64,000 nucleotides of DNA from Myxococcales bacterium (GCA_045863395.1 BTVJ01000016.1:32001-96000); one strand, 5' to 3'. Counted from the stretch's first letter, positions 1,855 through 22,463 are shown. Notes: generated by a model not told the origin, from the letters alone. Translations and numbers: made by a program.

Positions 1855-1862
1855 GCCGGCCC

Positions 1863-4800
1863 ATGAAGGCGCTCCTGCCCATCGCCGCCATCGTCGTCGC
1901 GCTCCTGCCGCTGGTGCTGGCGTGGCTGCTGAGCCGCGTGGCGGGCGCGCGCCGCATCGCCCTCGGGCTGATGATCCTGGGGTCGGCGTACATCATCGAC
2001 GTCAACCTGCTGATGCACGAGCAGTACCGCGGTATGTCCCGCAGCTTCGACGTGGGCACCACGGACCTCCTGGTCCTGAGCCTCATCGTGTACCTGATGG
2101 GGCAGGGCAGCAGCCGCGGCCTGGTGTGGAGGGCCCCCTCCAACCCGGGCTCCGTCACCCCGGTCATGCTGATGCCGCCTGGGCTCCCGTTGCTGCTCCT
2201 CTTCGTGACGATTGCCGCGTTCTCCATCATCGGCTCGAGAGAGCCCCTCTATGGGTTCATGGACCTGTTCAAGCTGGTGCGGGGCCTGGCGGTGTTCTGG
2301 GTGAGCGCCAACCTGCTCGCCGACGACCGGAGCGCCAGGAACCTGCCGTTCTTCCTCCTGATCTTCGTGGGCGTGGAGATGGCGGTGGCCACGAAGCAGC
2401 ACCTCTCGGGGGTCTGGTGGGTTCACGGGACCTTCGAGCACAAGAACAGCTTCGCCATGAGCATGAACCTCATCCTGCCGGTCATGCTGGCGGAGGCGCT
2501 GCGCGCCAAGGGGTGGCGGGGCGCCATCCTGCTCGGCTACGGCGCCGGGGCGGTGGGGCTCATCCTCTCGCGCTCCCGCTTCGGCTGGGCCACGATGGGC
2601 CTCGCCGCGATGATCGTCACGTCGCTCTGCCTGATCCTGACATTCGTCAAGCGCGACCGCTCCCTGCTCCAGCGGCAGGTAGCGGTCCTGGCCCTCGCGG
2701 CCTTTCTGGCCATCCCGGCCATCGCCAAGTCCTTCGACAGCATCGTGACCCGTTGGGGAGAAGACGCGGAGGTTTCCATGGATTTCCGGCACCGCAACAA
2801 CGACATCGCCAAGGCCCTCGCCCGGGAGCATCCCTTCGGCGTCGGTCTGAACAACTACGTGAAGGAGCTGGATCAGCCCATCGGGCGGCTCCTCGACCCC
2901 ATCGACCGGACGGTCGCCCACCACCTGTACCACCTGGTGGCGGCGGAGACGGGCCTGCTTGGGCTGATCTCCCTGGTCGGCGCCATGCTTGCCTTCGTGT
3001 TCATGGCGCTGCGGACCATCGTGCAGGCGGTCAAGCCCTGGTCTCAGACGGTCGCCATCGGGCTCGGGGCCGGGCTCGTGTCGGCCATGCTCCACAGCTT
3101 CGGGGAGAGCGACCTGCTCCGCCGCGAGACCTACTTCATCTTCTGCATGTTGATGGGCTTCCTCGCCGGCATCCACGTGCGCGAGGGGCTGGGCGGGAGG
3201 AGCCTCCTGATGCGGCTCCTCGGGGAGTCGGTGCGGGCGACCCGGCGGCCCGGCTATGGGGTGATCGTGCTCGCGGTCCTGCTCGCCCCCCTGGTGCTCG
3301 CGGGGCCTGCCCAGGCCGCATCTCCGACCGTCACGCCGCTGTCTGCGCGCCACCTGAGGCTCTCCTACTCGGCCCTGATCACGCCGACCCAGGTCCCTCC
3401 CGCGTCCACGTTCCGCATCGAGGGCGCCGCGAGCAAGGTCGTCGAGGTGGGCCTCCACGCCTTCGCCGTGGGCAAGGTGGAGGACCCGTGGCCGCCGAAG
3501 GCCATCATGCGCTACGACCTGCACCTGGTGCTGGACGAGCCCCTGCCCGAGGACAAGGAGGTCAAGGTCATCACGCCGAGCTGGCTCCTGACGAGCCCGC
3601 TGCCGGTGCGCTTCTCGTCTCTGGATCCCTCTCCGGCCATCAAGCTGGCGCAGGTCGGCTTCCTGCCCGAAGACCCGAACAAGGCGGTGTTCATCGGCGC
3701 CTACCTGGGGACGCTGGGGCCCCTGCGCGCGGAGCCCAAGACCTTCGACGTGGTGGACCTGCGAAACAAGGCGGTGGTCCTTCGCGGCACGCCCAAGCGC
3801 ATCGCCGAGGACGACCGCGTCTACCGGGAGGAGATCTGGCGGCTGGACATTGGCGCCCTGAAGGAGCCCGGGCACTACGCCGTGCACGTGCCGGGGGTGG
3901 GGCGATCTCTGGACTTCCGCGTGGGCGCCGACGTGTACGACGCCCCTCTGACCGCGGTGCTGCGCGCCTTCTACCACCACCGCTGCGGCGTGGCCATCGA
4001 CGCGAAGTACACCCGCTTCTCGCGGCCAGCGTGCCACCCCAAGGAGCAGGTGGGCTGCTTCACCCCCGAGCTCGCCGAGACTCCACTGTACGACGGGGAG
4101 AAGGCCGGCGAGTGCCGCGACCTGACCGGCGGCTGGCACGACGCATCGGACTACGGAAAGTACGTGCCGACCGCGACGGTGGCAGTCCACAACCTCATGG
4201 TCGCCTGGCAGGCTTGGCCCGACGCCTTCCCGGACGGGCGGCAGGGGATCCCCGAGAGCGGAAACGGCATCCCCGACATCCTGGACGAGGTGGCCTTTGA
4301 GCTGGACTGGCTGCTCAAGATGCAGCGCGATGACGGCGGGGTCTACCACAAGGTCACCTCCCGCCAGTGGGGGACGGACAAGCCCCCCCATTTGGACCGC
4401 AAGACCTTCGACGTAGCCGAGCGCACCACCCACGACACGGCGCGGGTCGCGGCGGTGATGGCCGAGGGCGCGCGGGTCTTCGCCAAGGTGGCGCCCGAGG
4501 CGGCGGCGCGCTACAGAGCCGGCGCGGAGCGGGCGTGGAGCTTCCTGAAGGCCCACCCGAAGGCCGTCCCGGACCCGGGATTCCGCAACCGCGAGTGGAA
4601 CGGGGGCGGGGAGTACGCGGACCGCTTTGGCGACGACGACGAGCGGGCGTGGGCGGCGGCGGAGTGGATCGCGCTCACCGGGGAGGCGGGCTTCGACCAC
4701 TACGTGGTGGACAAGGTGCCCGAGCCGTACAACGTTCGTGTTCCGCCCCTGTATGTGCGCGACTGGCCTCCTCCCTTCGAGGACTGCTGGCGCTTCGCCT

Positions 4801-5402
4801 TCCACCGCTACGCCCAGCTCAAGCACCCGCAGCGCAACGCGAAGCTGCAGGCGGCCATCCGGGACGCCTGGCGGGTCCGCACCGACGGCATCGAGGAGGC
4901 GAGCGCCGAGGACCCCTACGGCATGGCGTTCCGGCCGCGGCCGGGCGTCCCCTTCGGCTACGGCACCAGCAACGGCCTGCGGTACGCCATGGACGTGGCC
5001 CTGGCCAACGTGCTGCTCGGGCAGACTCCGCGGCGGCGGGAGGCGGCGCTGTCGAACCTTGGCGCGCTCTTCGGGAACAACGGCCCGGGCTTCAGCTTCG
5101 TCACCGGCATCGGCGCGCGGGCCGTCAGGCAGCCCGAGTATCGTCCCAACCTCTTCGACGGCATCGACGAGCCGCTGCCCGGCCACCCGGTGGACGGCCC
5201 CGCCTTGGGGGTCCACTCGTCGAACAGGGACGCCGACAAGAAGCTCTGGCCGCCGCCCGAAGAGTACCCGCCCGGCCAGTACTACTTCGACATGATGGAC
5301 CCCATCATGTCGGAACCCACCATCCTGGAGATGAGCGAGGCCGTGATCGCGTTCGCGCCCTACGCCACGCCCAAGACGTCGCCCGACGGCAGCCCACGCT
5401 GA
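1863..5402 (+). CDS. O-antigen ligase/Wzy-like membrane protein fused to Ig-like domain + glycoside hydrolase family 9
   Basis: N-half is multi-TM with GTFEHKN, LSRSRFGW, HPFGVGLNNY and HHLYHLVAAETGLLG (Wzy_C/WaaL-like). C-half has QVGFLPEDPNKAV (cellulase N-Ig), DLTGGWHDASDYGKY, PDILDEVAFELDWLLKMQ, FSFVTGIG and SEPTI (GH9). Confidence 0.85.
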   Translation: MKALLPIAAIVVALLPLVLAWLLSRVAGARRIALGLMILGSAYIIDVNLLMHEQYRGMSRSFDVGTTDLLVLSLIVYLMGQGSSRGLVWRAPSNPGSVTPVMLMPPGLPLLLLFVTIAAFSIIGSREPLYGFMDLFKLVRGLAVFWVSANLLADDRSARNLPFFLLIFVGVEMAVATKQHLSGVWWVHGTFEHKNSFAMSMNLILPVMLAEALRAKGWRGAILLGYGAGAVGLILSRSRFGWATMGLAAMIVTSLCLILTFVKRDRSLLQRQVAVLALAAFLAIPAIAKSFDSIVTRWGEDAEVSMDFRHRNNDIAKALAREHPFGVGLNNYVKELDQPIGRLLDPIDRTVAHHLYHLVAAETGLLGLISLVGAMLAFVFMALRTIVQAVKPWSQTVAIGLGAGLVSAMLHSFGESDLLRRETYFIFCMLMGFLAGIHVREGLGGRSLLMRLLGESVRATRRPGYGVIVLAVLLAPLVLAGPAQAASPTVTPLSARHLRLSYSALITPTQVPPASTFRIEGAASKVVEVGLHAFAVGKVEDPWPPKAIMRYDLHLVLDEPLPEDKEVKVITPSWLLTSPLPVRFSSLDPSPAIKLAQVGFLPEDPNKAVFIGAYLGTLGPLRAEPKTFDVVDLRNKAVVLRGTPKRIAEDDRVYREEIWRLDIGALKEPGHYAVHVPGVGRSLDFRVGADVYDAPLTAVLRAFYHHRCGVAIDAKYTRFSRPACHPKEQVGCFTPELAETPLYDGEKAGECRDLTGGWHDASDYGKYVPTATVAVHNLMVAWQAWPDAFPDGRQGIPESGNGIPDILDEVAFELDWLLKMQRDDGGVYHKVTSRQWGTDKPPHLDRKTFDVAERTTHDTARVAAVMAEGARVFAKVAPEAAARYRAGAERAWSFLKAHPKAVPDPGFRNREWNGGGEYADRFGDDDERAWAAAEWIALTGEAGFDHYVVDKVPEPYNVRVPPLYVRDWPPPFEDCWRFAFHRYAQLKHPQRNAKLQAAIRDAWRVRTDGIEEASAEDPYGMAFRPRPGVPFGYGTSNGLRYAMDVALANVLLGQTPRRREAALSNLGALFGNNGPGFSFVTGIGARAVRQPEYRPNLFDGIDEPLPGHPVDGPALGVHSSNRDADKKLWPPPEEYPPGQYYFDMMDPIMSEPTILEMSEAVIAFAPYATPKTSPDGSPR

Positions 5403-5429
5403 CTTCCGCTCATTTGCGCGCATCGGATG

Positions 5430-5459
5430 TTGACACGGGCGCCGCCCATGCCCTACGTT
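5430..5459 (+). promoter_or_regulatory. Putative sigma70-type promoter of the DUF4157 operon
   Basis: Perfect TTGACA (5430-5435), 18-nt spacer, TACGTT (5454-5459); GAGG RBS before ATG 5493. Confidence 0.55.
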
Positions 5460-5492
5460 CGGCTTTGGCATCCAACCCCAATGAGGTCCACC

Positions 5493-6785
5493 ATGGCTGA
5501 GCTGGTTCGCGCTTCCGCGCAGGGTCGCACCATTCGCCTGAAGGCCACGGGCTCGGGCTCAGGCCGCCACCTGAGCAGAGAACAGGCCGCGGGCGGCCAG
5601 CCGGACGACCTGCCCACCTCCCCCGAGGGCGCCAGCGTGAGCGCGCTTGGTCCCACCTACGAGGTCCGACCTCCAAGGCAAGGCAGCGAGGGCGAGGGGC
5701 CCATGGTCTCCACGTCGCCCGCCGGGCCCCACATCCAGCGGGACGGGGCGACCTCCATCGGGAGCTACATCGAGCGGACGGCCGGCGGCGGGAGCTCCCT
5801 GTCGAGCCAGGTGTCCCGCGAGATGTCCGGCGCCTTCGGCTACGACTTCAGCGGAGTCAACGTCCACAACGACTCGGCAGCCCACAACGTCTGCCGCAGC
5901 GTGGGGGCCAACGCCTTCGCCACGGGCAACGACGTGTACTTCGCGGCGGGGAAGTACGCCCCGGGCAGCCGGGAGGGCGACCGCCTCATCGCCCATGAGC
6001 TCACCCACGTCGTGCAGCAGAACGGCGGCGGGGTCGCGCGCAGCATCGCCAAGAAGGGCGTGACGTTCAGCACGCCGGGCGACCCCTACGAGACCCAGGC
6101 CGACGCGGTGGCGGAGACGGTCGTCGCCATGAAGTACGGCGGCGACGGCTCGAAGCTCGGCACCGTCAGCCGGAGCCCGTCGGGCTCGGCCCCGGACGTG
6201 TCGCGTGACCTGGACTCCATGCCTTCGACCACCCTCGCGAACGCAATCATCCAGCGCAAGATCGCCGGCGTCCCGGACGTACAGATGGACATCGGCATCA
6301 CCCTCGGCGTGGCGGGGCTCGTGGTGGGCATCGTGGGTCTCGGCGTTGGCTACGCGGCCTTCGGCGGCAACAAGTTGACGAAGTCCTTGAAGGAGCTTGT
6401 GGGCCAGCCCGGCGAGGCGCGGGATGCACACAGGGCGGCCAACCCCTGGCAGCGCAAGTCGTGGACGCCCATGCCACTTCAGCGAGCTGGCTCCATCGCG
6501 GGGCGCTTCTGGTATGGACTCCAGCTCTCCTGGGCTTACAACGGCCGAGAGATCAGCGATGTCGCCGTGGGCTTCGCGCCGGGCACCCAGAACCCGACCT
6601 TCGGCTCGTCGGAGGCCGAGTTCACGATCACGGACAACGTGGGCACGCAGACCAACCCGGCCCTCGGCTACCGGTACAGCGTGGACTATGACCCGGCGGC
6701 GGGCGGCCACTACGAGTACAGCGGGACAGGTCAGTTCAATGCCAGGGGCGGGGCGGACGGCACCCTCAATCGCCGCTCGTTGTAG
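5493..6785 (+). CDS. DUF4157 (eCIS core domain) protein with C-terminal putative effector domain
   Basis: FGYDFSGVNVH..VGANAFATGNDVYFAAGKYAPGSREGDRLIAHELTHVVQQ, then DPYETQAD and IQRK; then a Gly/Val-rich hydrophobic segment and a beta-rich tail. Confidence 0.9.
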   Translation: MAELVRASAQGRTIRLKATGSGSGRHLSREQAAGGQPDDLPTSPEGASVSALGPTYEVRPPRQGSEGEGPMVSTSPAGPHIQRDGATSIGSYIERTAGGGSSLSSQVSREMSGAFGYDFSGVNVHNDSAAHNVCRSVGANAFATGNDVYFAAGKYAPGSREGDRLIAHELTHVVQQNGGGVARSIAKKGVTFSTPGDPYETQADAVAETVVAMKYGGDGSKLGTVSRSPSGSAPDVSRDLDSMPSTTLANAIIQRKIAGVPDVQMDIGITLGVAGLVVGIVGLGVGYAAFGGNKLTKSLKELVGQPGEARDAHRAANPWQRKSWTPMPLQRAGSIAGRFWYGLQLSWAYNGREISDVAVGFAPGTQNPTFGSSEAEFTITDNVGTQTNPALGYRYSVDYDPAAGGHYEYSGTGQFNARGGADGTLNRRSL

Positions 6786-6831
6786 CGCACGGCAGGGCAC
6801 GGGTGCCACGGGCTCGTTGCGGGAGGTCCAT

Positions 6832-7548
6832 GTGAGCAGCGCCCACGACCGCCTGGCGCGCTCCGAGGCGTGGGGGCTCCGGGTGGATCAGTGGCGTGCG
6901 GCAGGGCACCACGACCGAGACGTCTGCCGCGCCGCCACCTACCGCTGGCCCGTGACGTGGGCCGAGGTGGAGGGTCGGGTCAGCCAGACATCCACAGCGC
7001 AGGGCTCCCCAGATCTCCCTCCCCTACCACCCGCCGCACACACGCTCCCGAGTCTGCTCGACGGGCCCACGGAAGAGGCGCCGTGGTGGCTCACGGGCGA
7101 GCTCCCTGAAGCACTGCGCCGCGCCGCATCGTCGCCGCTCCTCGCTGCGTCGCTCCTCCGTGCCGCCGACGCGCGGCCGAGCGGCCTGGCCGCAGCGCGG
7201 GGCCTCGTCACGCTGTCCAGCCTCGCCACCCCGCGCGGCGACCTGACCGTGGACGCCGCCTGGGCGCAACCTCTTGGGGCCGCACTGCGACACGCCCTCC
7301 AGGGCCAGCGGCTCGTCCCGTTCCTCGACCCGCAGCTCTTCGCCGGGCTCGCCGTCGCCGGCATCCACGCGCTCTCCTTCGCGTCTGCCCTCGCCCCGAC
7401 GGATGCGGACCGGGTGGCGCTCTGTGAGGAGTGGGTGGAGCTGCTGCTGGCGGCCGAGGAGCACGACCCGGCCGGAGACTCGCTCGGAGATCGGGCGCGC
7501 CGCCTGGCCCCGGCGATGGCCGGCGTGACCCAGAGGGGGACGCCGTGA
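6832..7548 (+). CDS. Hypothetical protein (helical, Ala/Leu-rich)
   Basis: GGAGG RBS then GTG 6832; stop overlaps next start (GTGA); no recognised motif. Confidence 0.6.
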   Translation: MSSAHDRLARSEAWGLRVDQWRAAGHHDRDVCRAATYRWPVTWAEVEGRVSQTSTAQGSPDLPPLPPAAHTLPSLLDGPTEEAPWWLTGELPEALRRAASSPLLAASLLRAADARPSGLAAARGLVTLSSLATPRGDLTVDAAWAQPLGAALRHALQGQRLVPFLDPQLFAGLAVAGIHALSFASALAPTDADRVALCEEWVELLLAAEEHDPAGDSLGDRARRLAPAMAGVTQRGTP

Positions 7549-9362
7549 GGGTGGAGCTGCTCTTCCCCCCTCTGTTCAAGGCCAGCGAGCCGTACATCGC
7601 GCTGCCGCTCCTCGTGGGGTTCCTGCGCGAAAACGGCGTACCGGACGTGCAGGCGCGGGACCTGAACCTGGACTACGTCTACCACCTGATGGAGGATTCG
7701 ACCCTCGCTGAGGCAGGGCGGGAGCTGCTCGGGCGCCCTCCCGCGGGCACGTGGCTCGACGACGCGGAGCGCACCCTGGTGGGCGCCGCGCTCACCCACG
7801 TGCCCGTGCTGCGACGCTGGCTCCCGGAGTCGCTGGAGCTCTACAGAGCCCACAGGGATCCCGAGGCGCTCCGCGCCATGCCGCGCCAGCAGGCGCAGAG
7901 ACAGGCCGCCCAGTTCGAGCTCGTCTTCGAGATGCTCTTCGAGGTGTACTCCGCCCTCCACTACCCCTGGCGCATGGAGAACCCCATCACGAGGCGGGAG
8001 GCGGTGCTGTCCAACGAGACATGGACGATGGACGAGTCCAACAACGTCCCGTGGCGGGACTGCCTGGCCTGGGACCACCCGCGCAATCCGTTCCGCGCCT
8101 TCTTCGAGTCGTCCGTGGCGCCGGGCCTTGCGGAGCGGCGCCCGTCCGTGGTCGGGATCTCGCTCATGTTCCGGCAGCAGCTCCTCGCGGCGTTCACCCT
8201 GGCCGCGGTCGTGCGGAGAGCCCTCCCGGAGGCCCATATCTGCCTCGGAGGCGCGCTGTTCAGTGACCTGGAGCACTATCTCTTCACCGCGCCCGCCGTG
8301 CGGGACGCCGTGTTCCAGCACGTGGACTCCGTGGTGCTCGGACCCGGCGAGGTGCCGCTGCACGGGCTCATCCAGGCGCTTGGAGCGGGCGCCGCCGTGG
8401 AGGGGGTCTCCAACGTGCTCACCCGCGCCGGCGTGGAGCGGGCGTCCGGCGGTGACATCGCCGGCAGCATCGAGGAGCTGAGCGGCTTCGACCCGGCCGG
8501 GCGCGAGTCTGCCGAGCTCGACCGCTTCGCGACCCCCATCTTCTTCGATGGACGGCTCGACCGCTACCTGTACCGCACGCGGGAGCTGACGATTCCCTAC
8601 CTGACATCCTACGGGTGTTACTGGAACAAGTGCTCCTTCTGCAAGTACCGGGAGCAGGTCCACCGCTACTCGCCCAAGCCCGTGGACACGGTCGTCCAGG
8701 ATCTGCGAGCCTTGTCGGCGCTGCACGGGAGCCGACGCTTCCACTTCAGCGATGAAACACTATCTCCCTCTTACTGCAAGCGCCTTTCGGCTGGATTGAT
8801 CGACGTCGGTTCACCGTTCGCGTGGTCGGGCAACGCGCGCTTCGACCCCGGCTTCACCGTGGAGCTGGCCACCGCAATGCGCAGGTCCGGGTGCGAGTAT
8901 ATCTCGTTCGGCCTCGAGTCCGGCTCCCAGCGAATCGTCGACCGCATGGGCAAGGGCACCCGCTCCGAGGTCGTCGAGCGGACCATGGAGGCATTCCGCG
9001 CTGCCGGGCTGCCCGTGAACCTGTATCTGTTCGTTGGCTTCCCCGGCGAGACGGAGGAGGACATCGCGCTGACCGTCGCGTTCCTGCGGCGCCACCGGGA
9101 GGCCATCACGGATCTCTCGGTGGGGCCGTTCACCCTCTACAAGGGGACCGGGGTGTTTCGAGACCCTGCGCGGTACGGAATCCGGGACGTGGAGCAGGGA
9201 GAGCTCCGGGACCCCGAGGTGCTCCGCTGGGTCTATCACTACGAGTTGGCCGAGGAGACTGGTGGCCTGATGCCCGAGGAGGCCATGACGAAGTATCTGG
9301 TGCACCACCGTGACCTCTTCGGGCAGATGGGCGAGGGCCTCTCACCCGATGGCACCTGGTGA
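7545..9362 (+). CDS. Cobalamin(B12)-binding radical SAM protein
   Basis: GCYWNKCSFC (CxxxCxxC); N-terminal FPP..PYIALPLLVGFL; B12-domain-like VVGISLMFRQQL..HICLGGA..GPGEVPL; FSDETLS, SFGLESGSQRIVDRMGKG, LFVGFPGETEED. Confidence 0.9.
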   Translation: MRVELLFPPLFKASEPYIALPLLVGFLRENGVPDVQARDLNLDYVYHLMEDSTLAEAGRELLGRPPAGTWLDDAERTLVGAALTHVPVLRRWLPESLELYRAHRDPEALRAMPRQQAQRQAAQFELVFEMLFEVYSALHYPWRMENPITRREAVLSNETWTMDESNNVPWRDCLAWDHPRNPFRAFFESSVAPGLAERRPSVVGISLMFRQQLLAAFTLAAVVRRALPEAHICLGGALFSDLEHYLFTAPAVRDAVFQHVDSVVLGPGEVPLHGLIQALGAGAAVEGVSNVLTRAGVERASGGDIAGSIEELSGFDPAGRESAELDRFATPIFFDGRLDRYLYRTRELTIPYLTSYGCYWNKCSFCKYREQVHRYSPKPVDTVVQDLRALSALHGSRRFHFSDETLSPSYCKRLSAGLIDVGSPFAWSGNARFDPGFTVELATAMRRSGCEYISFGLESGSQRIVDRMGKGTRSEVVERTMEAFRAAGLPVNLYLFVGFPGETEEDIALTVAFLRRHREAITDLSVGPFTLYKGTGVFRDPARYGIRDVEQGELRDPEVLRWVYHYELAEETGGLMPEEAMTKYLVHHRDLFGQMGEGLSPDGTW

Positions 9363-9865
9363 GGGAGACGATGACAGACGGCTTCCCGCTGGAGGACGAG
9401 ATGCTGCGCTTCTGGCGTGCCCGATCCGACTATCTGGGGGTCCTCGGCCGACTCCACGGCGCGCGCGGCGAGACTGCCCGAGCCACCGACTGCCTCACTC
9501 GCCGCGCGGCCCTCGCTCACCATCTGAGAGACGCGGGGCGCCAGCTCGACGCCCTGGCCGGCCTCTCGGACGTCGCAATCGCCGCAGGTCGCCCGGGAGA
9601 CTCGCTCTGGGCATTGCAGCGTGCGGCCCCCTTGGCATCGGACGCCGGTGTCGACGAGCTGGCGGCCGCCCTCGGTCGGGCGCTGCCGGCGTGGGCTGGA
9701 GCCCTCCCAGCCCGGGAGGTCCTCGGTGCGCTGGGCGCGATCCTGGGCGACGCTCCAAGCGGCGCCCTCCGCGCGGCCCTTGCCGGCGCCCTGCGAGCGC
9801 TCGGTGATCCGGCTCGGGCAGCGGAGCTGGAGTCCCCACCACCTTCGGAGGTCGAGGCCCGATGA
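9359..9865 (+). CDS. Small TPR-like hypothetical protein
   Basis: 4-bp overlaps at both ends; helical repeat pattern (LGRLHGARGETARA..LAGLSDVAIAAGRPGDS). Confidence 0.6.
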   Translation: MRETMTDGFPLEDEMLRFWRARSDYLGVLGRLHGARGETARATDCLTRRAALAHHLRDAGRQLDALAGLSDVAIAAGRPGDSLWALQRAAPLASDAGVDELAAALGRALPAWAGALPAREVLGALGAILGDAPSGALRAALAGALRALGDPARAAELESPPPSEVEAR

Positions 9866-11745
9866 GCACCACACTGACTCCCGCCGAGCGATACTCCATC
9901 GGGCTCAGCGTCCTCCTCAACATGGGCTCGCTGACCACCTTGAGCCGCGAGTCTGGGCTGTCGCTCCGGCAGCTCCAGGAGCTGCGGGACGACTTCCTCG
10001 CCGCAGCGCGCCGCGGCCTGGAGGGCGGGGATGGGCCAGCGACCGCCCTGCCCGTGGAGCTGGCGCTCCACGAGCTCCGCCTGGCGGGCGACTTCGAGGC
10101 GGTGGGCGACGCGGAGGCGGCGGGCGCGGCCTTCCAGCGCGCCATCGCCCTCGACCCGGGGAGCGGCCTCGCGCGCAAGGCCTGGGGCATCCACCTCTTC
10201 GGGCAGCGCCGCCTCGACGAGTCCCGGGGAGCCCTCGAGGCGGCCCTGGAGCGCCTCGGCGAGGACGGAGAGTGCGACTGCGTGCTCGCCATGGTGCACC
10301 GCCTGGAGGGGCGCGACAGGGAGGCGGAGCGCCTGCTCGCGCGAGGCACGCGGAGACCAGGGCTCCCCGACTACCTCCTCGGGCCGCTGGTCGATCTGCA
10401 CCTGGATCTCGGGCGCACCCAGGAGGCGCTGCTCTTCCTGGAGCGGGAGCGCGCCCTCCGGGATGGCGCGGGCGGGGCGCAGGCCGCCTATGCCCACGCG
10501 ACGCTCCTCAAGCGGCTCGGGCGCTTCGAGGAGGCCGCCGAGATCGCGGAGGGGGCAGTAGAGTCCAGTGGCGCCGTGCCGCTGGTCCTCCTGCTCGCAT
10601 CCCTGGAGGTGCTCTGCCTGGACCGGCCGGCTCGTGGCATCGCGCGGCTGCGCCAGCTCGTGGATGCGTGGCCCGCAGATCCGCTGCCGCGGCTCGTGCT
10701 GGGAGAGATGCTGCTGGCTACGGGGGCCCATGCCGAGGCGGAGCAGGAGCTGCTGCGGGTGCTCTACCGCGGGCCTGCCAACGGGCGCGCCATCCAGGCG
10801 ATCACCGACCTGTACCTGAGCGCCGGGAACGCTGAGAGGCTCCGCCACATCGGCGCGGAGCTGCGGAGGGAGGGCGAGGGGGTCTACGGGGGCCTGCTCA
10901 TCGCCCAGGCCCACGTGGCAGAGGGGCGCTTCGAGGACGCGCTCCGCGAGCTGACGGGCCTGCGAGAGCAGGTGCCGCACAACGTGGCGGTGCTCGTCCT
11001 CATCGCCCACGTGGCGTTCGAGACCGGCGACGAGGGGAGCGTAGGGTCCGTGCTGGGGGCGCTGGTCGACCAGCTCGCCCGGCGCCGCGGGCTCAGCCCC
11101 GAGGAAGAGCAGGCGGCGCTGTCCCTCTGCCGCTACCTGCGCCTCAACGGCCGCCCCGACGTCTCGCTCCGGGTCCTGGACGCCCTGCCGCGACCGGCCG
11201 CGGGCGCCCCCGGAGTCGAGGTGGAGCGTGGGCTCTGCCTGGCTGAAGCCGGCCGCACCGAGGAGGCCCTCGTCGCCCTGACGGCGGTGCAGCAGCGGGA
11301 GCCCTTCGACGGTATCCACGGCACACGCCTCGCCTACCACCTGCTCCACCACCACGGGGACGCCGAGCGGGCCCGCGCCGTGATCACGGCGACCCGGCGC
11401 CAGGCGCGCCCGAGCGAGGAGTTCGCCGTGAGCCTGTGCGCGACGTACCTCGCGCTTGGCTCGCTCCCCGAGGCGCTGGACGTGGTCCACGAGGCGTTTC
11501 TCGCCCGGAGCAAGGTCCCGGTGGTGACGACGGAGCTTCACCGCGCGGTGCAGGGGCACAGTGGCGACCTGACGACTCCCCAGCAGCTTGCCGCACACGT
11601 CGTGATGATGCTACGGGCCCGGTCTCCCGAGCGCGCGGCAGAGCACCTGGCCGCCGCGCGGCAGCTTGCCCGCACCGAGGCGGAGCGTTCCGTGTGCGAC
11701 CAGCTCTCGCGCGCGTCGCAGGTAGCCGAGGAGCGGGTGCCGTGA
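9862..11745 (+). CDS. Tetratricopeptide repeat protein with N-terminal HTH-like segment
   Basis: Multiple TPR units (AFQRAIALDPGSGLA, LLKRLGRFEEAA, AEGRFEDAL, AEAGRTEEAL); N-terminus SLTTLSRESGLSLRQLQELRDDF resembles an HTH. Confidence 0.8.
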   Translation: MSTTLTPAERYSIGLSVLLNMGSLTTLSRESGLSLRQLQELRDDFLAAARRGLEGGDGPATALPVELALHELRLAGDFEAVGDAEAAGAAFQRAIALDPGSGLARKAWGIHLFGQRRLDESRGALEAALERLGEDGECDCVLAMVHRLEGRDREAERLLARGTRRPGLPDYLLGPLVDLHLDLGRTQEALLFLERERALRDGAGGAQAAYAHATLLKRLGRFEEAAEIAEGAVESSGAVPLVLLLASLEVLCLDRPARGIARLRQLVDAWPADPLPRLVLGEMLLATGAHAEAEQELLRVLYRGPANGRAIQAITDLYLSAGNAERLRHIGAELRREGEGVYGGLLIAQAHVAEGRFEDALRELTGLREQVPHNVAVLVLIAHVAFETGDEGSVGSVLGALVDQLARRRGLSPEEEQAALSLCRYLRLNGRPDVSLRVLDALPRPAAGAPGVEVERGLCLAEAGRTEEALVALTAVQQREPFDGIHGTRLAYHLLHHHGDAERARAVITATRRQARPSEEFAVSLCATYLALGSLPEALDVVHEAFLARSKVPVVTTELHRAVQGHSGDLTTPQQLAAHVVMMLRARSPERAAEHLAAARQLARTEAERSVCDQLSRASQVAEERVP

Positions 11746-11784
11746 CCGCCTGTGCAGCGCCAACAACCCGAGAGGAGGACAGAC

Positions 11785-12018
11785 GTGAAGCGTGACCCGT
11801 CCCTGGTAGGGCTCTTGATGATCGTGGCCGGCCTGCTGGCGGGCCTGCTCCCCGCGACCGTGCTGGCCCAGGTGCCGGACACCGGGGCAGCCAACGCCCA
11901 GACGGCGATCATCCTGAATGGAGCAGGCAACGTGATCATCGGCGTCGGGCTCATCATCGTCGCCTTGGGGCAGCGTCGGCTCAGGGCGCGCATCGACCGG
12001 CTGGAAGCGGGGCGCTGA
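11785..12018 (+). CDS. Small hydrophobic protein (signal peptide/TM plus second TM)
   Basis: GAGGAGG RBS then GTG; 77 aa with two hydrophobic segments and a basic tail. Confidence 0.7.
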   Translation: MKRDPSLVGLLMIVAGLLAGLLPATVLAQVPDTGAANAQTAIILNGAGNVIIGVGLIIVALGQRRLRARIDRLEAGR

Positions 12019-12022
12019 CCCG

Positions 12023-14152
12023 GTGCAGCCCTACCACTCGCCCTACGAGCTGCTCCTCGACCAGATCGAGCGGGCCTTCCTGCTGACCGAGCGGGCCGTG
12101 CGCCAGCCGTGGACCGCCCCGGGTGGGCCGCGCCAGGCGCCCGCGTCGCTCCTGCGCCTCCTCGGCGCCGACCGGGTGGGGGACCCGACCGAGGAGCAGC
12201 AGCGAGTCGCGCGCATCGAGGGGGAGCTCGGCGACCTGCAGGACGTCACCACGGCGCGTCTCCAGGCAGCACGGCTCGCAGGCCCCTCCCTGCCCGCCAT
12301 CGTGCGGCACCTCGGGCTCGACGCCCTCCAGACGGACCTGCTGCTGCTCCTGCTGGCCTACGAGCTGGACGCGCGCTTCTTCGCACTCTACGCGCACCTC
12401 CAAGGAGAGCGGCGTCGTCACGGCGTGGACGCGGCGGTCCTCGCCGAGATCGTGTGCCCCACGCCGTGGCTCCGCGCGCGCCTCCTCGAGGAGATCTCGC
12501 CCCGGGGGACCCTGGTCGCCCACCGGCTCGTGGAGGTGATGCCCACGGACTCGCAGAGCCCGCCCCCCTTGGTCCTGACGCCGCTGCGGGTGCACCCGGC
12601 GGTGCTCGACTTCGTGATGGGGGCGCCCCCGGCCCCCGTCCCCTACCGGGTCATCGTGACGCCCACGCTCGGCCCGTCCGACCTGGTGCTGGGCGAGGGG
12701 GCGGCCGCTGCCCTGGAGAGCCTGCGCGGCCGCCTCGCCGCGTGGGACAGCGCCCCAGCCCTGCTCCTCCACGGCCCCGAGGGCACGGGGAAGCGCTCCT
12801 TCGTGGGCGCCCTCTGCAGGGACCTGGGCCTCGGCCTGTTCGAGCTGGACCTCGGGCGCGCCTCCCCGGAACCGGAGACCTTCGACGAGGAGGTGCGCCG
12901 CTGGCTCGTCGAGGGCACGCTCTACCGCGCCGTCTGCCTCGCGAGCCCCCTCGACGCGCTGATCGCCCCCGAGGGCGCGCCGGCGGACCCGCGGCTGCGC
13001 ATCCTCGCCCAGCATGTGGACGCGAGCGCGGGCCCCGTCGCCCTGTCGAGCCGCACGCCCTACCCGCTCCACCGGTGGTTCCGCCGCCCCACCTCCAGCG
13101 TGTCCCTCGGGCGCCCCACGGCGGCCATGCAGGAGTCCCTCTGGCGCGCCGAGCTGGGGAGAGCCGGCGCCTGGCTGCCCACGGAGCAGGTCCAGGAGCT
13201 GACCGTGCGCTACAACGTGTCAGGCGGAACCATCCGGGGCGCCATCGACCAGGCGGTGCGGTGGCGCGGCCCCCTCGCCGCGTCGGGGGCAGTGTTTGAC
13301 GTGGTGGAGCAGAGCCTGCGGCGCCACGTGGGGACGCGCCTGTCGGAGGTCGCCACCCGCGTCCAGGCGCTGGCCACGCGGGAGGACCTGATCACGTCGC
13401 CGGAGCTGATGGACCGCGTCGACGCGCTGCTGGCCCGAGTCCACCACCGGCACCAGGTCCTGGGCGCCCAGGGCATGGGCCGGCGCCTGCGCCTCGGGGC
13501 CGGCGTCACGGCCCTCTTCTGGGGCCCGCCCGGCACCGGCAAGTCCATGGTGGCCGGCGTCATCGCCCGCGAGCTGGGCTTCGAGCTCTACCAGGTCAAC
13601 CTGTCGGGCATCCTCTCCAAGTGGCTCGGCGAGACGGAGAAGAACCTGGCCCGCCTCTTCGACGAGGCGGAGACCGGCCACGTGATCACGCTCTTCGACG
13701 AGGCGGACAGCCTGTTTGCGACCCGCACCAGCGACGACTCGCCCCAGGGCCAGGCCAGCGTCCAGCGCATCAACTTCATCCTCACGCGCCTGGAGACCTT
13801 CCGGGGCTTCGCCATCCTGACCTCCAACCGGGAGCAGGCGGTGGACCCCGCCTTCAAGCGCCGCCTCAACGCCAGCGTGTACTTCCCCATCCCGGATCTG
13901 ACGGTGCGCGAGCGCATCTGGACCCACATGCTCGCGGGCCTGGGCGACGACCTCCCCGTGGAGCTGCTGGCCCGCTGCGAGCTCTCGGGCGGCTACATCA
14001 GGAACGCCGTGGCCACCGCCGCCTTCCTCGCAGCGCGCCGCGGCCAGCGGGTGAGCCCCCCCATCGTGCTCGCGGCGCTGCGCCAGACCCTCGACGACCT
14101 GGGCCACGTCGTCCCCATGTGGCTGATCGAGGCGGCGGCGGCGGACGCCTAA
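12023..14152 (+). CDS. AAA+ ATPase with tandem AAA domains, eCIS-associated (Afp15/Pvc15-like) architecture
   Basis: N-terminal [19 protein letters not shown] region; Walker A GPEGTGK and [32 protein letters not shown]; Walker [26 protein letters not shown]. Confidence 0.85.
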
Positions 14153-14311
14153 GGGCCCGTGCAGTAATAACCTGATCCACCGAGGGCGCTGATGCGCCCC
14201 GCTGGGGGTTCGACGAGACCGCAGGCAGGGCCTTGTCCTTCCAAGGTCTCGGCGGGCCGCCAGCGGGGATGCAGCGGCGGCCGAATGGACAGGTTATTGC
14301 TGCACGGGCCC
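14153..14311. mobile_element. 159-bp non-autonomous MITE (IS5/PIF-Harbinger-like ends)
   Basis: 22-bp terminal inverted repeats GGGCCCGTGCAG(T/C)AATAACCTG at 14153-14174 and 14290-14311 (21/22 match); TAA direct repeats at 14150-14152 and 14312-14314; nested internal inverted repeats; no transposase. Confidence 0.8.
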
Positions 14312-14889
14312 TAATACAGCTTCGGCTCGTTACCCGGGCGCCACTTGATGTTGCACCCCAAGGAGGCGCGCTGCACCTCCAAGGGCGGCTCCCCTGCCAG
14401 GCAAGCGTCGATGGCTCGGGCAAGGTCCGCGCCCGTGACGGGGACCCCGTTGCTGGGGCGGGAGTCGTCGAGCTGGCCCCGGTAGACCAGGCGACGGCCC
14501 TGATCGAAGAGGAAGAAGTCCGGGGTGCAGGCGGCGTGGTAGGCGTGGGCCACGTCCTGGGTGTCATCGAAGAGGTACGGGAAGCGCCAGCCCTCCGCGC
14601 GCGCAAGCTCCGCCATGTGCTCCGGGCCGTCCTGGGGGTGTGTCTCGACGCTGTTCGCGTTGATGGCGACCACGGCGAGGCCGCGGTCCATGCGGTCATG
14701 GACCAGGCGCGCCAGGGTCTCGCGCACGTGGATCACGTACGGGCAGTGGTTGCAGATGAACATCACCAGCAGGGCCGGCGCGTCCATGAAGTCCGCCAGG
14801 GAGACCGTGCGGCCGGTGACCGTGTCGCGCAAGGTGAAGTCGGGCGCCGGAGTGCCGAGCGGGAGCATCGTCGATGGGGTGCGGGCCAT
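14311..14889 (-). CDS. Thioredoxin-fold AhpC/TSA family protein
   Basis: LGTPAPDFTL, FICNHCPYV (CxxC), ACTPDFFLFD, YRGQLDDSRP, SLGCNIKW. Confidence 0.9.
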   Translation of the reverse strand: MARTPSTMLPLGTPAPDFTLRDTVTGRTVSLADFMDAPALLVMFICNHCPYVIHVRETLARLVHDRMDRGLAVVAINANSVETHPQDGPEHMAELARAEGWRFPYLFDDTQDVAHAYHAACTPDFFLFDQGRRLVYRGQLDDSRPSNGVPVTGADLARAIDACLAGEPPLEVQRASLGCNIKWRPGNEPKLY

Positions 14890-15075
14890 GGGGTCCTCCA
14901 AGTCATGGTCAAGGAGCGCCGTCGCGGCGCTGGCGGGCTCGCCGACGTTACACTGGGGCGCACCCCCGCCGCTTGCCTTGCCCGCCGGTTCCCTTGCACG
15001 GCGGACCATACCACACGTTCGGGACCCCGCCAGCCCCCGGACGGCTCGCGACGCTCTCGGCCCACCGCGCAGGCG

Positions 15076-15936
15076 TCACCCCAGCACCCGCGGCCCCTTG
15101 AGGCGCCCCGCCACGTACCCGACCCTCTGGAGGGTGCGCACCAGCGGCGAGCATACGAGCGATGCGCCGTCGCGCGACAGCAGGCAGGCGGGCACGTCGC
15201 GAGCGACGTCCCGGACCACCCCCGCCAGCGTGCGCCCCACGCGGAGGGGGCGCTCTCCGGGCGGGAAGATGGCGGCGTCGGCCCGGCCCTCCTCGAAGAA
15301 GCGCTTCCAGGTCTCGCGCAGCGTGTAGTTGTGCGAGTGCTCCGCTGCGGCCCCAGGGACGTACCTGATGCGCAAGCCCCGCTGCTCGGCGTCCCGCGCC
15401 CACTCGAGGTCCTCGGAGTACTGGACCGCCTCGCTGAACGGGCGCTCCAACAGCACCGAGCGCCTGAACGCGCTCGCCGCCATGCTGAAGAAGGGGCGCC
15501 ACGGCGGAGGCTCCGCTCCAAAGGCTTGGGCGTAGTCGATGCGCACCAGCGTCGTCGCGTCGGCGCGAGGCACCTGCCGCCCGTAGACGGCGTCCGCCTC
15601 CCCCCCGCGCAGTGGCTCCGTCAGATCGGCGAGCCACCGCTGCCCGAGGGGCACGGTGTCGCTGTTGAGCATCACCAGCACGTCCGCCCGCGCCTCACGC
15701 ACACCCCAGTTCAGGACGCGCCCCGGGTTGTAACCACCCTCCGGGACGTCCAGGACCCGCGCACCCCGCTCCTCGAGCAGCTCCCGCGTCCCGTCCGTCG
15801 ATGCGTTGTCCAGGGCGATGAGGTCCCACGTGAGTCCCCGCTGGGCAGCGAGCCCGTCCAGGGTTCGCCGGATGATCGGCATGTCGTTGCGCGCGCGCAT
15901 CACGACCGTAGCCTGGACCTCAGAAGCCCGCTTCAT
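15076..15936 (-). CDS. Glycosyltransferase family 2 (rhamnosyltransferase-like)
   Basis: VVMRARN, DNASTDGT, LNSD, YGRQVP, YSEDLEW, HSHNY. Confidence 0.85.
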   Translation of the reverse strand: MKRASEVQATVVMRARNDMPIIRRTLDGLAAQRGLTWDLIALDNASTDGTRELLEERGARVLDVPEGGYNPGRVLNWGVREARADVLVMLNSDTVPLGQRWLADLTEPLRGGEADAVYGRQVPRADATTLVRIDYAQAFGAEPPPWRPFFSMAASAFRRSVLLERPFSEAVQYSEDLEWARDAEQRGLRIRYVPGAAAEHSHNYTLRETWKRFFEEGRADAAIFPPGERPLRVGRTLAGVVRDVARDVPACLLSRDGASLVCSPLVRTLQRVGYVAGRLKGPRVLG

Positions 15937-16008
15937 GCCTTGTCGCCTCCCTTCGAGGAGTCTACCATCCACACTCGCGCCGAGAGATGGTGGCGCAGAG
16001 GGTGGCCT

Positions 16009-17205
16009 GTGCGGATCCTGTTCGTCAACCGGTCGGCGCGCTTCCAGGGCGGAATCGAGGCGGACGTGCACGTCGCCGCCGGAGGCCTCGCTGCGCGCGG
16101 TCACGAGTGCCACCTCCTCGCCTTCGACGCCGACGTGGACCCGACGTACACCGCGCCCTTCGCCTCCGCGCACATCGCCCCGTCCGACGAGGCCCGCGCC
16201 CTGGCGGCGCGGGTGGACGCCGTGGCGCCCTCACTGGTCTACCTGCACAAGGTCGAGGATGCGTCGGTCCTCGGGCTCCACGCCCTGATGGCCTCTCCGC
16301 GCCGCGTCCCGGTCGTCCGCTTCGTACACGACCACGATCTTCATTGCATGAGGCGGCACCGCTACCTGCCCATCACCTTGGACGTGTGCACCCGCCCCGC
16401 CGACCTGCTCGGCTGCCTCCGCTGCGGCGGCTTCTTCGAGCGGAGCCGCGAGGGCCTCCTCCCGCTCCGGTGGCGCCCCGTCACTGCGCGCCTGAAAGAC
16501 CTGGCCGCGACGCGCGCCCTCACGCGCGTGCTGGTCGCGAGCCGCTTCATGGCCGAGGAGCTGCGCAGAAACGACGTGCCCGAGCACCTGGTGCGCGTGG
16601 TCCCGCTCGGCGTCCCCGACGCCCCCGTCCCTCCACCTGCGACATCCCGGGGGCGCGTCGCCTTCGTCGGCCAGCTCCTGCGCACCAAGGGCGTGGACCA
16701 GCTCCTGCGCGCGCTGGCGGAGACCCCGTCGGAGACGACCCTGGACGTCGTCGGTGACGGCGCCCAGCAAGGAGAGCTCCGAGAGCTGGCGGAGCGGCTC
16801 GGCGTCGGCGGCCGCGTCGCCTGGCACGGCCGCCTCGACGCGGCCCAGGTCGCCCGGGTCCTCGCGTCAGCCGCCATCGTCGCGTTCCCCTCCCGCTGGC
16901 CGGAGCCCTTCGGCCTCGTCGGCCTGGAGGCCATGCGCGCGAGCCGCCCCGTGGTCGCCTTCGACGTCGGCGGAGTGCGCGAGTGGCTGGAGCATGGCCG
17001 GACGGGCCTCGTCGTCCCCGCGGGCGACGCCCTCGGCTTCGCGCGGGCCCTCCGCCGCCTGGTCCGGGATCCGGCTGGAGCGCACGCCATGGGGAACCTG
17101 GGCCGCGCGTCCTACGAGCGCACGTTCCACGTCGACCGGTATCTCGACCGACTGGAGCGCCACCTCGTCGAGGCGACCTTGGGCTCCGAGGATGGACCCG
17201 CGTGA
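16009..17205 (+). CDS. Glycosyltransferase family 4
   Basis: GTG start, RILFVN..GGIE; FVGQLLRTKGVD; PSRWPEPFGLVGLEAM. True gene is the 3' part of ORF 14233..17205. Confidence 0.9.
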   Translation: MRILFVNRSARFQGGIEADVHVAAGGLAARGHECHLLAFDADVDPTYTAPFASAHIAPSDEARALAARVDAVAPSLVYLHKVEDASVLGLHALMASPRRVPVVRFVHDHDLHCMRRHRYLPITLDVCTRPADLLGCLRCGGFFERSREGLLPLRWRPVTARLKDLAATRALTRVLVASRFMAEELRRNDVPEHLVRVVPLGVPDAPVPPPATSRGRVAFVGQLLRTKGVDQLLRALAETPSETTLDVVGDGAQQGELRELAERLGVGGRVAWHGRLDAAQVARVLASAAIVAFPSRWPEPFGLVGLEAMRASRPVVAFDVGGVREWLEHGRTGLVVPAGDALGFARALRRLVRDPAGAHAMGNLGRASYERTFHVDRYLDRLERHLVEATLGSEDGPA

Positions 17206-22437: not shown

Positions 22438-22463
22438 AGTCAGGACGACCAGGAGCGCTCAGG

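Follow-up and report, generated by a model that had tools for sequence, protein, structure and literature searches.

The window analysed here is a stretch of 64,000 nt from contig C16 of a Myxococcales bacterium (GCA_045863395.1 BTVJ01000016.1:32001-96000), and our interest lies in its positions 5430..14152. The host is an uncultured myxobacterium from wastewater. As the earlier note had described, gene calls and translations place seven co-directional genes (g1 to g7) in this stretch, all on the + strand (Table 1; preferred starts were picked by their Shine-Dalgarno sequences). The genes are closely spaced. Two neighboring pairs share 4 bp, g2-g3 at 7545 (GTGA) and g4-g5 at 9862 (ATGA), and short gaps of 46, 39 and 4 nt separate g1 from g2, g5 from g6 and g6 from g7. 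A third overlap, claimed at 9359, holds only for a GTG start of g4 that has no ribosome-binding site. The claim that the operon has its own TTGACA promoter is not supported: the hexamer is present upstream of g1, its best -10 partner is TACGTT, and a consensus scan of 5200-14400 returned no promoter-like site (0 versus 0.2 expected). Inside the operon, the + strand carries no promoter-like or terminator-like site. The codon-position GC pattern is weak in g2 and in g4, where it is the GC3 signal that is weak.

Table 1. Features of the operon and its flanks (positions counted from the first letter of the window)
Feature	Position	Strand	Start, Shine-Dalgarno sequence	Description
TTGACA hexamer	5430..5435	+		upstream of g1; promoter role unsupported by consensus scan
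g1	5493..6785	+	ATG 5493, GAGG	430-aa PVC-type DUF4157 protein
g2	6832..7548	+	GTG 6832, GGGAGG	238-aa helical protein
g3	7545..9362	+	GTG 7545	605-aa cobalamin-type (class B) radical SAM protein
g4	9371..9865	+	ATG 9371, GAGGGAG (alternative GTG 9359)	164-aa Ala/Leu-rich helical protein
g5	9862..11745	+	ATG 9862	627-aa TPR protein
g6	11785..12018	+	GTG 11785, GAGGAGG	77 aa, two hydrophobic helices
g7	12023..14152	+	GTG 12023	709-aa WHD + double AAA ATPase
Palindromic dispersed repeat, 161 nt	14152..14312			directly after g7 stop; nested inverted repeats

The operon sits within an exopolysaccharide (Wzx/Wzy polysaccharide) gene cluster. The repeat that follows g7 is predicted to fold very stably (-128.5 kcal/mol, z -11.7) and may act as a terminator. 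It is not specific to the operon: the genome has 39 matches to it, a count that includes self-matches on the reverse strand.

The g1 protein is of the eCIS kind to which it had been assigned. It matches the Pfam family eCIS_core/DUF4157 (PF13699) at 105.4 bits (cut-off 22; E 1.8e-30), and its translation contains HELTHVVQ, which conforms to the zincin signature HExxHxxQ as defined in PMC3482391 (section 13). DUF4157 is strongly eCIS-specific, with an odds ratio of 2614 in the available text of PMC8213781. The protein is built from an N-terminal segment of about 92 residues rich in G, S, P and E, the DUF4157 zincin, a Gly-rich hydrophobic helix and a beta-rich C-terminal domain of about 150 aa. 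Residues 1-92 have pLDDT values under 50 in the AF2 model. A search of 1.84 billion representatives with the C-terminal part recovered seven homologs, all metagenomic (five full-length and two fragments), and DUF4157 is retained in all five full-length proteins and in one of the two fragments. Alignment of the full-length relatives shows that the hydrophobic helix and C-terminal domain are conserved and that the N-termini are unalignable. We read g1 as a DUF4157 domain flanked by a probably disordered N-terminus and a variable C-terminal domain. A search of 400 other genomes of the phylum did not find the C-terminal family.

The g3 protein appears to belong, as proposed, to the cobalamin-dependent class of radical SAM enzymes, and C-methyltransferases of peptides and proteins are among the families nearest to it. 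It scores 61.9 bits to Radical_SAM (PF04055; cut-off 29.5), with a B12-binding (PF02310) match of 25.5 bits that is below the cut-off of 32.1. The usual radical SAM cluster motif is CX3CX2C; that of g3 is CX4CX2C (C358, C363 and C366), with all three cysteines conserved without exception across 59 sequences. The top NCBIfam matches, both far below cut-off, are to the PhpK family TIGR04479 (1.4e-30, 106.1 bits versus 600) and the RiPP C-methyltransferase family TIGR03975 (4.9e-30, 104.6 bits versus 281.85). The AF2 model (pLDDT 87) predicts a Rossmann-type cobalamin domain and a radical SAM barrel, with a helical insertion of about 150 residues in the N-terminal domain. Foldseek matches this model to the cobalamin enzymes MgmA, OxsB, TsrM, TokK and CysS with E-values between 1e-14 and 1e-10, the top three being MgmA (E 3.6e-14), OxsB and TsrM. 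MgmA is a protein glutamine C-methyltransferase. There is no Pfam match to PqqD or an RRE in g3, and weak PqqD or winged-helix matches occur at the C-termini of its homologs P0004 and P0007.

Only three close relatives of g3 were found; its relatives include one of 92% identity and others of 47-48%. The gene combination described in the earlier note is not conserved around more distant homologs: no match to any of the other six proteins of the operon (threshold E 0.01) turned up at 117 loci whose radical SAM homologs have at most 38% identity. The neighbor families at such loci are taxon-restricted and each is found at 22 of 101 loci at most. Among homologs of about 31-34% identity, YcaO is encoded at 18 of 101 loci and TfuA at 11 of 101, as neighbors of actinobacterial homologs. 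Since some distant homologs thus sit with YcaO and TfuA, it is plausible from such sequence context that g3 modifies a peptide or protein. Effector maturation by g3 is unproven, the evidence pointing neither for nor against it.

Neither g2 nor g6 matches any family in Pfam, NCBIfam or PADLOC; g2 may be an immunity or adaptor protein, and g6 may serve in immunity or as a membrane adaptor. A homolog of g2, P0072, is 75% identical, and the longest contigs of P0072 and of the 92% identical g3 relative have the same length, 6789 bases; one close relative has kept g2 and g3 together. Only a weak, below-cut-off Pfam match to TPR_MalT (E 0.002) is seen for g4, for which a search of its own genome found no homolog. 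By comparison g5 is a clear TPR protein (TPR_19 at E 7.3e-19, along with further Pfam TPR families), for which no homolog beyond itself was found at useful E-values; its top NCBIfam match, far below cut-off, is to the EPS-linked TPR protein PrsT. In PADLOC, g7 resembles IetA and TRIP13 only as AAA proteins do in general, g3 has a weak match to PDC-M51A (1.8e-7) and the other five proteins have none, so the operon shows no specific defense-system match. There is no leader-core-like gene that could encode a RiPP precursor in the operon, and the gaps leave no space for another small gene.

The g7 ATPase combines a WHD domain (PF22977, E 3.2e-20) with AAA domains (E 1.2e-29), the second of which has GPPGTGKS and DEAD motifs. 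Its best PDB sequence match is Cdc48/p97, at about residues 520-690 of those chains. Its best full-length plasmid matches are eCIS-embedded and have the same PF22977-AAA pair, an architecture shared by the ATPases in the CIS operons of Rhodococcus pWB1 and Nostoc pn3. The description of g7 as Afp15/Pvc15-like holds for the architecture. In a tree of 17 rows with an arbitrary root, the five eCIS-embedded references form one clade (95/98), and g7, on a long branch (1.67), pairs with its paralog own_C30 (85/94) beside that clade, on the eCIS side of the tree. Eight of the 12 ATPase paralogs of the genome group in a clade of their own, separate from the eCIS references, in the same arbitrarily rooted tree.

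The statement that the window lacks CIS structural genes stands: none of the structural Pfam families is represented among its 53 called proteins, and six-frame genome searches found no sheath, tube, Baseplate_J or gp25 match on the operon's contig. The search of the rest of the genome suggested in the earlier note revealed a split CIS on two other contigs, C80 (Pvc16_N, two sheath genes, two tube genes, a LysM hub and GPD) and C18 (gp25, Baseplate_J and Tail_P2_I). Neither contig carries an ATPase homolog. Thus g1 is neither in nor beside the structural locus, and with the CIS genes on other contigs, action of the operon in trans is possible.

DUF4157-then-ATPase is a recurrent unit. It is found at canonical loci in the phylum, and the genome studied here has five instances, with five of the 12 full-length ATPases of the g7 kind adjoining DUF4157 genes. 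A sixth paralog is coupled to a 2105-aa ADP-ribosyltransferase protein, and one accompanies a DUF2201 metallopeptidase/VWA protein. Other dyads of the genome have small genes of other kinds, lying between the two members or next to them (CpXC, and unknown proteins 254 and 259 aa long). In another genome of the same order (G002), six ATPase loci adjoin DUF4157 and none is on a sheath contig. We sampled 81 genomes of the phylum, 25 with Pvc16_N and 56 without. The WHD domain is present in all 25 of the former, and full-length-sized WHD frames occur in six of the latter. In classes other than that of the window, 9 of 15 CIS-positive genomes have the ATPase no farther than 6 kb from Pvc16_N, and in eight of these nine a DUF4157 frame of 194-326 aa is directly beside it; within the class of the window, ATPase and Pvc16_N share a contig in none of 10 CIS-positive genomes (G000 included). 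Because the small DUF4157 gene directly precedes the ATPase gene by the structural operon in 8 of those 15 genomes, the operon resembles a detached, expanded version of this two-gene unit.

Our preferred reading, held tentatively and at a little under an even chance, is that the operon is such a detached and expanded eCIS unit, most likely serving the split CIS of the genome in trans. Published CIS-dependent secretion of DUF4157 proteins, as described in the available text of PMC11566945, provides a precedent. The operon would on this reading be an unusual variant of a known toxin-delivery cassette, a proposal that is unproven. The g1 protein would be a PVC-type cargo or toxin with its disordered N-terminus as loading signal, its zincin as releasing domain and a membrane-active C-terminal part. 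Loading or unfolding of g1 would fall to g7, and g2, g6 or both might be immunity or accessory proteins. The genes g3-g5 would be a lineage-specific addition whose products modify, probably by C-methylation, one of the cassette's proteins (g1 is the likeliest) and keep the modified protein ready for g7. The domain identities, the arrangement of the operon, the CIS on other contigs and the repeated DUF4157-ATPase pairing are observed, whereas loading in trans, the immunity functions and everything assigned to g3 are inferred.

Several observations count against this reading. The radical SAM link is not conserved, g5 has no homolog, and the C-terminal family of g1 was not found in the 400 other genomes of the phylum. 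The g7 protein lies on its long branch outside the five-reference eCIS clade. The hydrophobic helix of g1 is unusual for a protein that is threaded into a tube lumen. There is no recognizable RRE in g3 and no precursor-like gene in the operon, the surrounding Wzx/Wzy cluster means that some of the genes might serve a polysaccharide pathway, and six sampled genomes have full-length-sized WHD frames without Pvc16_N.

Part of this evidence would fit a composite operon, in which a CIS cargo-loader pair acquired an unrelated radical SAM-TPR module between its genes, the module acting on a small molecule, lipid, glycan or unlinked peptide with no tie to g1 or g7. We consider this unlikely but deserving of serious weight. 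The tight packing of the genes, with two 4-bp overlaps and no internal + strand signal, argues against it, as does the persistence of g2-g3 in a close relative, and the nearest characterized relatives of g3 have peptides or proteins, not glycans, as substrates. On the other side are the many unrelated contexts of the radical SAM homologs, with their taxon-restricted neighbors and without matches to the six other operon proteins, the different small genes of the other dyads, the polysaccharide genes all around the operon, and the distant PrsT similarity of g5. The polysaccharide genes, which concern the envelope, also bear on an eCIS-independent machine, a conflict, quality-control or envelope system without a contractile particle, in which g1 would be a membrane-anchored zincin and g7 a Cdc48-like unfoldase working on g1, or together with it, at the membrane, with the radical SAM and TPR proteins as partners. 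The helix between DUF4157 and the C-terminal domain in g1 and its five full-length relatives is consistent with this, as are the 12 ATPase paralogs (eight in a separate clade) of a genome with a single CIS, the WHD frames in genomes without Pvc16_N and the paralog with the DUF2201/VWA protein. We nevertheless think it improbable, given the WHD domain in every sampled Pvc16_N genome, the position of g7 and own_C30 on the eCIS side of the tree, the eCIS specificity of DUF4157 (PMC8213781, available text) and a CIS in the genome with no ATPase of its own.

Most improbable by some way is a RiPP-like cluster, in which g3 would modify g6 or part of another product, g1 would act as leader peptidase, and export or folding would be assisted by the TPR and AAA proteins. 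The similarity of g3 to TIGR03975, YcaO and TfuA beside its actinobacterial homologs, and the weak C-terminal matches of P0004 and P0007 are what suggest it. Against these, g6 is a two-helix membrane protein and not leader-core shaped, g3 lacks an RRE and scores far below the cut-offs of the RiPP families, gaps of a few tens of nucleotides or less have no space for a further small gene, and we know of no DUF4157 protein that acts as a RiPP peptidase.

Comparison with known systems places the detached-unit reading in context. Like MgmA, the PoyB/PoyC-type TIGR03975 enzymes and PhpK, g3 has a predicted cobalamin Rossmann-type domain and radical SAM barrel. It differs from cobalamin radical SAM methyltransferases in its cluster motif, its insertion and its below-cut-off B12-binding score, and no known type of substrate is encoded near it. 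In the archaeon Halogeometricum borinquense, DUF4157 proteins belong to the CIS-dependent secretome, three secreted ones being named apart from two placed at the CIS cluster, and toxic ones are neutralized by the gene immediately downstream, the position held here by g2 (PMC11566945, available text). The same text mentions no radical SAM protein, TPR protein or dedicated ATPase beside these toxins.

The g1 protein shares with the AlgoCIS cargos Cgo1 (498 aa) and Cgo2 the layout of a disordered N-terminus, DUF4157 and a variable C-terminus, as set out in the available text of 10.64898/2026.05.27.728243. As with the cargo and loader of eCIS and PVC systems (Pvc15 with Pnf and Pdp1; Alg15 with Cgo1 and Cgo2), a WHD-AAA ATPase is encoded in the operon. 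In contrast to these systems, the operon is on a different contig from the structural genes, five extra genes, including those for the cobalamin radical SAM and TPR proteins, lie between g1 and g7, and g1, whose loading is only proposed, has a hydrophobic helix. A parallel in gene order is the small-DUF4157/ATPase pair beside Pvc16 in other classes of Myxococcota, in which DUF4157 is likewise upstream of the WHD-AAA gene and on the same strand. The DUF4157 protein of that pair is short, matches Pfam weakly and is encoded abutting the ATPase gene and the structural operon, whereas g1 is longer, matches strongly and lies 5.2 kb from g7. The DUF4157-ATPase pair is a known unit, and the radical SAM part of the operon is rare.

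The seven-gene operon begins with a DUF4157 protein (g1) and ends with an AAA+ ATPase (g7) whose family architecture is that of extracellular contractile injection systems (eCIS), and it lies away from any such machine: as the earlier note had observed, CIS structural families are matched by none of the 53 proteins called in the window. Structural genes are nevertheless present in the rest of this genome (G000, 8.77 Mb in 186 contigs), where a CIS is found in two pieces, a sheath/tube/hub locus on contig C80 and a baseplate locus on contig C18, neither contig carrying a g7 homolog. We read the operon as a detached and expanded cargo-loader cassette with a radical SAM (rSAM)-TPR maturation add-on, an interpretation that we prefer while giving it somewhat less than an even chance.

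Genes were called from codon-position G+C (the window has 72% G+C overall) and open frames, with the likely starts set by ribosome-binding sites. This recovers the seven co-directional plus-strand genes described previously, between 5.4 and 14.2 kb. Of the 4-bp stop-start overlaps described with them, those at 7545 (GTGA) and 9862 (ATGA) are real, whilst that at 9359 exists only for an alternative start of g4. The TTGACA taken to mark the operon's own promoter is present at 5430, but a consensus scan passes zero promoter-like sites. The element after g7 contains nested inverted repeats (23 and 24 nt) and folds into a hairpin of -128.5 kcal/mol (z -11.7). It is a dispersed repeat outside the system: its 39 genomic matches are spread over many contigs, frequently at their ends, and it resembles a MITE or a REP-like element.

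Features of the operon, of its surroundings and of related loci in the same genome
Feature	Position	Strand	Description
g0	1791-5402		1179-1203-aa fusion of O-antigen-ligase/Wzy_C membrane domain, CelD_N and GH9 glycoside hydrolase; upstream of operon
g1 (DUF4157)	start ATG 5493	+	ribosome-binding site GAGG
g2 (helical)	start GTG 6832	+	ribosome-binding site GGGAGG
g3 (rSAM)	start GTG 7545	+	ribosome-binding site AGGGGGA
g4 (TPR-like)	start ATG 9371 (alternative GTG 9359)	+	ribosome-binding site GAGGGAG
g5 (TPR)	start ATG 9862	+	ribosome-binding site GAGG
g6 (membrane)	start GTG 11785	+	ribosome-binding site GAGGAGG
g7 (ATPase)	start GTG 12023	+	ribosome-binding site weak
Palindromic dispersed repeat, 161 nt	14152-14312		directly 3' of g7 stop
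Downstream part of polysaccharide cluster	14311-29028 (to about 29 kb)		AhpC, GT2, three GT1 genes, Poly_export/SLBB, WecG, nucleotidyl transferase, epimerase/dehydratase, flippase
Multihaem protein	36668-40030	-	1121 aa
CIS piece 1	C80 (L119 6323-19091)		Pvc16_N, two sheath genes, two tube genes, 1573-aa protein, tube-LysM protein, GPD
CIS piece 2	C18 (L146 8443-15041)		gp25, Baseplate_J, Tail_P2_I, then two FHA-domain proteins
Sixth ATPase locus	C46 (L130 6424-15041)		
CpXC protein	C30 (L121 9141-10013)		
CpXC protein	C50 (L124 12270-12899)		
C17 ATPase paralog	C17 (L133 9218-12773)		

The operon is enclosed by a complete-looking Wzx/Wzy-type polysaccharide cluster. In G002, a genome of the same order, the two halves of the upstream gene g0 are split into neighbouring genes (48% identity each); a synteny comparison of the two genomes gave no match downstream of the operon. 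Further along the window, a protein on the opposite strand carries Big_2 domains together with domains of the multihaem cytochrome c7/c3 and MtrC/MtrF-like types. Near-identical operon DNA occurs in 20 runs belonging to 11 studies, which carry the labels wastewater, sludge, bioreactor or aquatic. Among the contigs of four runs compared with the operon, those of one run, from a different study, span 1500-14181 almost identically, and none shows an operon-less form; the joints listed in that comparison, each side being 20-53 letters long at 80% likeness, seem to be noise contributed by other organisms.

The g7 ATPase joins a WHD (PF22977) to an AAA domain, and among solved structures Cdc48/p97 match it best. 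PF22977+AAA is also present in two ATPases that are among its best full-length matches in 72,556 plasmids: that of Rhodococcus pWB1, directly upstream of Pvc16-sheath-tube-baseplate genes, and that of Nostoc pn3, which follows a DUF4157 protein of 2074 aa that stands behind a gene with the annotation 'phage tail protein'. The assignment of g7 to the eCIS-type ATPases holds for its architecture, but in a 17-row tree it falls beside, not inside, the single clade formed by five eCIS-embedded references (95/98); there it pairs with a paralog from contig C30 (85/94), in a placement that its long branch makes uncertain, and a separate clade (100/100) is made up of eight further paralogs.

Such ATPases are numerous in this genome, which encodes 12 full-length g7-like proteins and nine DUF4157 genes. 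Five of the ATPases, on C16 (the window's contig), C30, C37, C1 and C50, adjoin DUF4157 genes, and in four of the five cases the partner has an open frame some 1250-2700 aa long. Another ATPase, the sixth, shows translational coupling to a protein of 2105 aa that ends in an ADP-ribosyltransferase domain and in which Pfam detects no DUF4157. CpXC zinc-ribbon proteins adjoin two of the DUF4157-ATPase pairs as a recurrent third partner. The paralog with the top WHD score, on C17, unlike the DUF4157 pairs, has as neighbours a SWIM-finger protein and a DUF2201 metallopeptidase/VWA protein. The picture is the same in G002, the only other genome of the order that is reasonably complete: DUF4157 gives 18 matches there and g7 gives 22; six of its ATPase loci adjoin DUF4157, none of them on sheath contigs.

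The wider distribution was surveyed in a sample of 81 genomes from the phylum, each at least 90% complete, by searching them for WHD, Pvc16_N and DUF4157, which are found in 39, 25 and 30 genomes respectively; the genomes are drafts of 50-490 contigs, in which fragmentation may hide some links, and kin among them are not independent. WHD is present in all 25 Pvc16_N genomes and in 14 of the 56 that have no Pvc16_N, with frames of at least 650 aa in six of these 14. Its copy number is 1-5, except in G000 (15 matches) and a second genome, G013 (20 matches). In other classes a WHD gene lies at most 6 kb from Pvc16_N in 9 of 15 CIS-positive genomes, and in eight of these nine a short DUF4157 frame (194-326 aa) is directly beside the ATPase. 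In the window's class, WHD and Pvc16_N share a contig in none of the 10 CIS-positive draft genomes, G000 included. We interpret DUF4157-then-ATPase as an ancient unit of such systems which, in the window's class, has moved out of the structural operon and multiplied, and that the operon described here retains the order of this unit with five genes inserted.

The g1 protein matches DUF4157/eCIS_core at 105 bits and contains HELTHVVQ, the PVC-metallopeptidase signature as given by Zhang et al. 2012 (PMC3482391). Its AF2 model, built from 8 sequences, is poor (mean pLDDT 49.9): the first ~92 residues are modelled without confidence, and the zincin domain is followed by a Gly-rich hydrophobic helix and then a seven-stranded C-terminal part. 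Only 7 relatives of this C-terminal part occur among 1.84 billion representatives. DUF4157 is carried by all five that are full-length and by one of the two fragments, and the alignment keeps the hydrophobic helix and the C-terminal domain, indicating that g1 belongs to a small but real family. The C-terminal part has no match in plasmids, viral contigs or 400 other genomes of the phylum, and an ESM Atlas search with it and with g2 gave no usable match, the structural rows being mostly TM <0.5 on low-confidence models. A loading signal common to g1 and the genome's other eight DUF4157 proteins was considered and rejected, the g1 N-terminus being dissimilar by eye; a helical N-terminal region common to three giant DUF4157 proteins adjoining ATPases is, also by eye, absent from g1.

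There is no family match for g2, but a 75%-identical protein exists, and the longest contig for it and for a 92%-identical rSAM relative is alike 6789 bases, which indicates that g2 is real, is kept beside g3 and evolves faster than g3. A complex prediction for g3 with g2 scores 0.01, which we count neither for nor against binding. The g4 protein is weakly TPR-like, g5 is a clear TPR protein with no detectable relatives, and g6 has two hydrophobic helices in 77 aa; g2, g4, g5 and g6 have no paralogs in their own genome at E 1e-4.

The g3 protein is a radical SAM protein with a B12-binding score under the cut-off. Its model (pLDDT 87) is closest to the cobalamin enzymes MgmA, OxsB and TsrM, its nearest NCBIfam families are the PhpK and TIGR03975 methyltransferases, at scores far under their cut-offs, and its cluster motif CX4CX2C is invariant in 59 sequences. 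Only three relatives exceed 45% identity (92, 47 and 48%) among 5.8 billion clusters, all on short metagenomic contigs; none above 38% occurs in 185,579 species genomes, JGI metagenomes or 400 other genomes of the phylum, and viral contigs hold none. Neighbour families at 101 of 117 loci of distant rSAM homologs are taxon-restricted, and include YcaO at 18 loci and TfuA at 11, in actinobacteria; these loci are probably thioamide-type RiPP clusters. At L067, L081 and other actinobacterial loci (L045-L116; Micromonospora, Streptomyces and relatives), the cobalamin rSAM homologs beside YcaO/TfuA have a GCYWxKC motif. These neighbours, together with weak PqqD or winged-helix matches at the C-termini of two distant g3 homologs, suggest that the clade leans to peptide or protein substrates. 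A RiPP cluster is still the account of the operon that we find hardest to credit, g3 itself having no recognition domain and no precursor-like gene among its neighbours.

The gene neighbourhood is not conserved: at the 117 loci of distant rSAM homologs, the other six operon proteins are without a match (tblastn, E 0.01). What the earlier note observed is largely correct, and its proposal of an effector-maturation system is right in part, as an eCIS-type cargo-loader unit apart from its machine; the link that it draws to RiPP-like chemistry has co-transcription in one narrow lineage as its sole basis. The rSAM is only weakly tied to the DUF4157-ATPase cassette. That the rSAM module is a passenger would sit well with the unshared neighbourhoods and less well with the co-transcription, and is an unlikely but serious contender. 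An eCIS-independent membrane system would suit the hydrophobic helix of g1 and its relatives, less so the presence of WHD in all 25 Pvc16_N genomes, and we consider it improbable.

Under the cargo-loader reading that we prefer, the TPR scaffolds might assist the cobalamin-dependent rSAM in the chemical maturation of CIS cargo or of its loading signal, and a cargo-dedicated Afp15-like ATPase would then pass the matured cargo to a structural particle encoded elsewhere. We regard this full sequence of steps as a long shot. If true, radical-SAM modification would be seen for the first time in a phage-tail-like secretion pathway, and the scheme would fit a class-wide pattern of the loader ATPase leaving the structural operon, multiplying and becoming effector-specific; in the library searched, no paper contains both 'DUF4157' and 'radical SAM'. 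Efforts to engineer eCIS particles as protein-delivery vehicles are held back by the open question of how their cargo is selected, made ready and loaded. Should the ATPases be effector-specific loaders acting in trans on an ATPase-less structural locus, they would offer a natural system for loading specificity, and should the rSAM modify cargo, post-translational chemistry would be added to injection-system biology. If neither holds, the operon is another polymorphic toxin cassette with a passenger enzyme.

Separation of the cargo-loader unit from its machine is typical of this lineage, and a functional precedent for it has been published. Geller et al. 2021 (PMC8213781) describe DUF4157 as one of the core domains of eCIS and connect it with toxins. 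CIS-dependent secretion is reported for five DUF4157 proteins, of which two are placed inside the CIS cluster or immediately upstream of it and three are named apart from these; the toxic ones are countered by a downstream partner (Sci Adv 2024, PMC11566945). For the AlgoCIS cargo, a preprint gives the N-terminus the role of loading signal and Alg15 that of loader, and describes loading as able to proceed without DUF4157 (2026, 10.64898/2026.05.27.728243).
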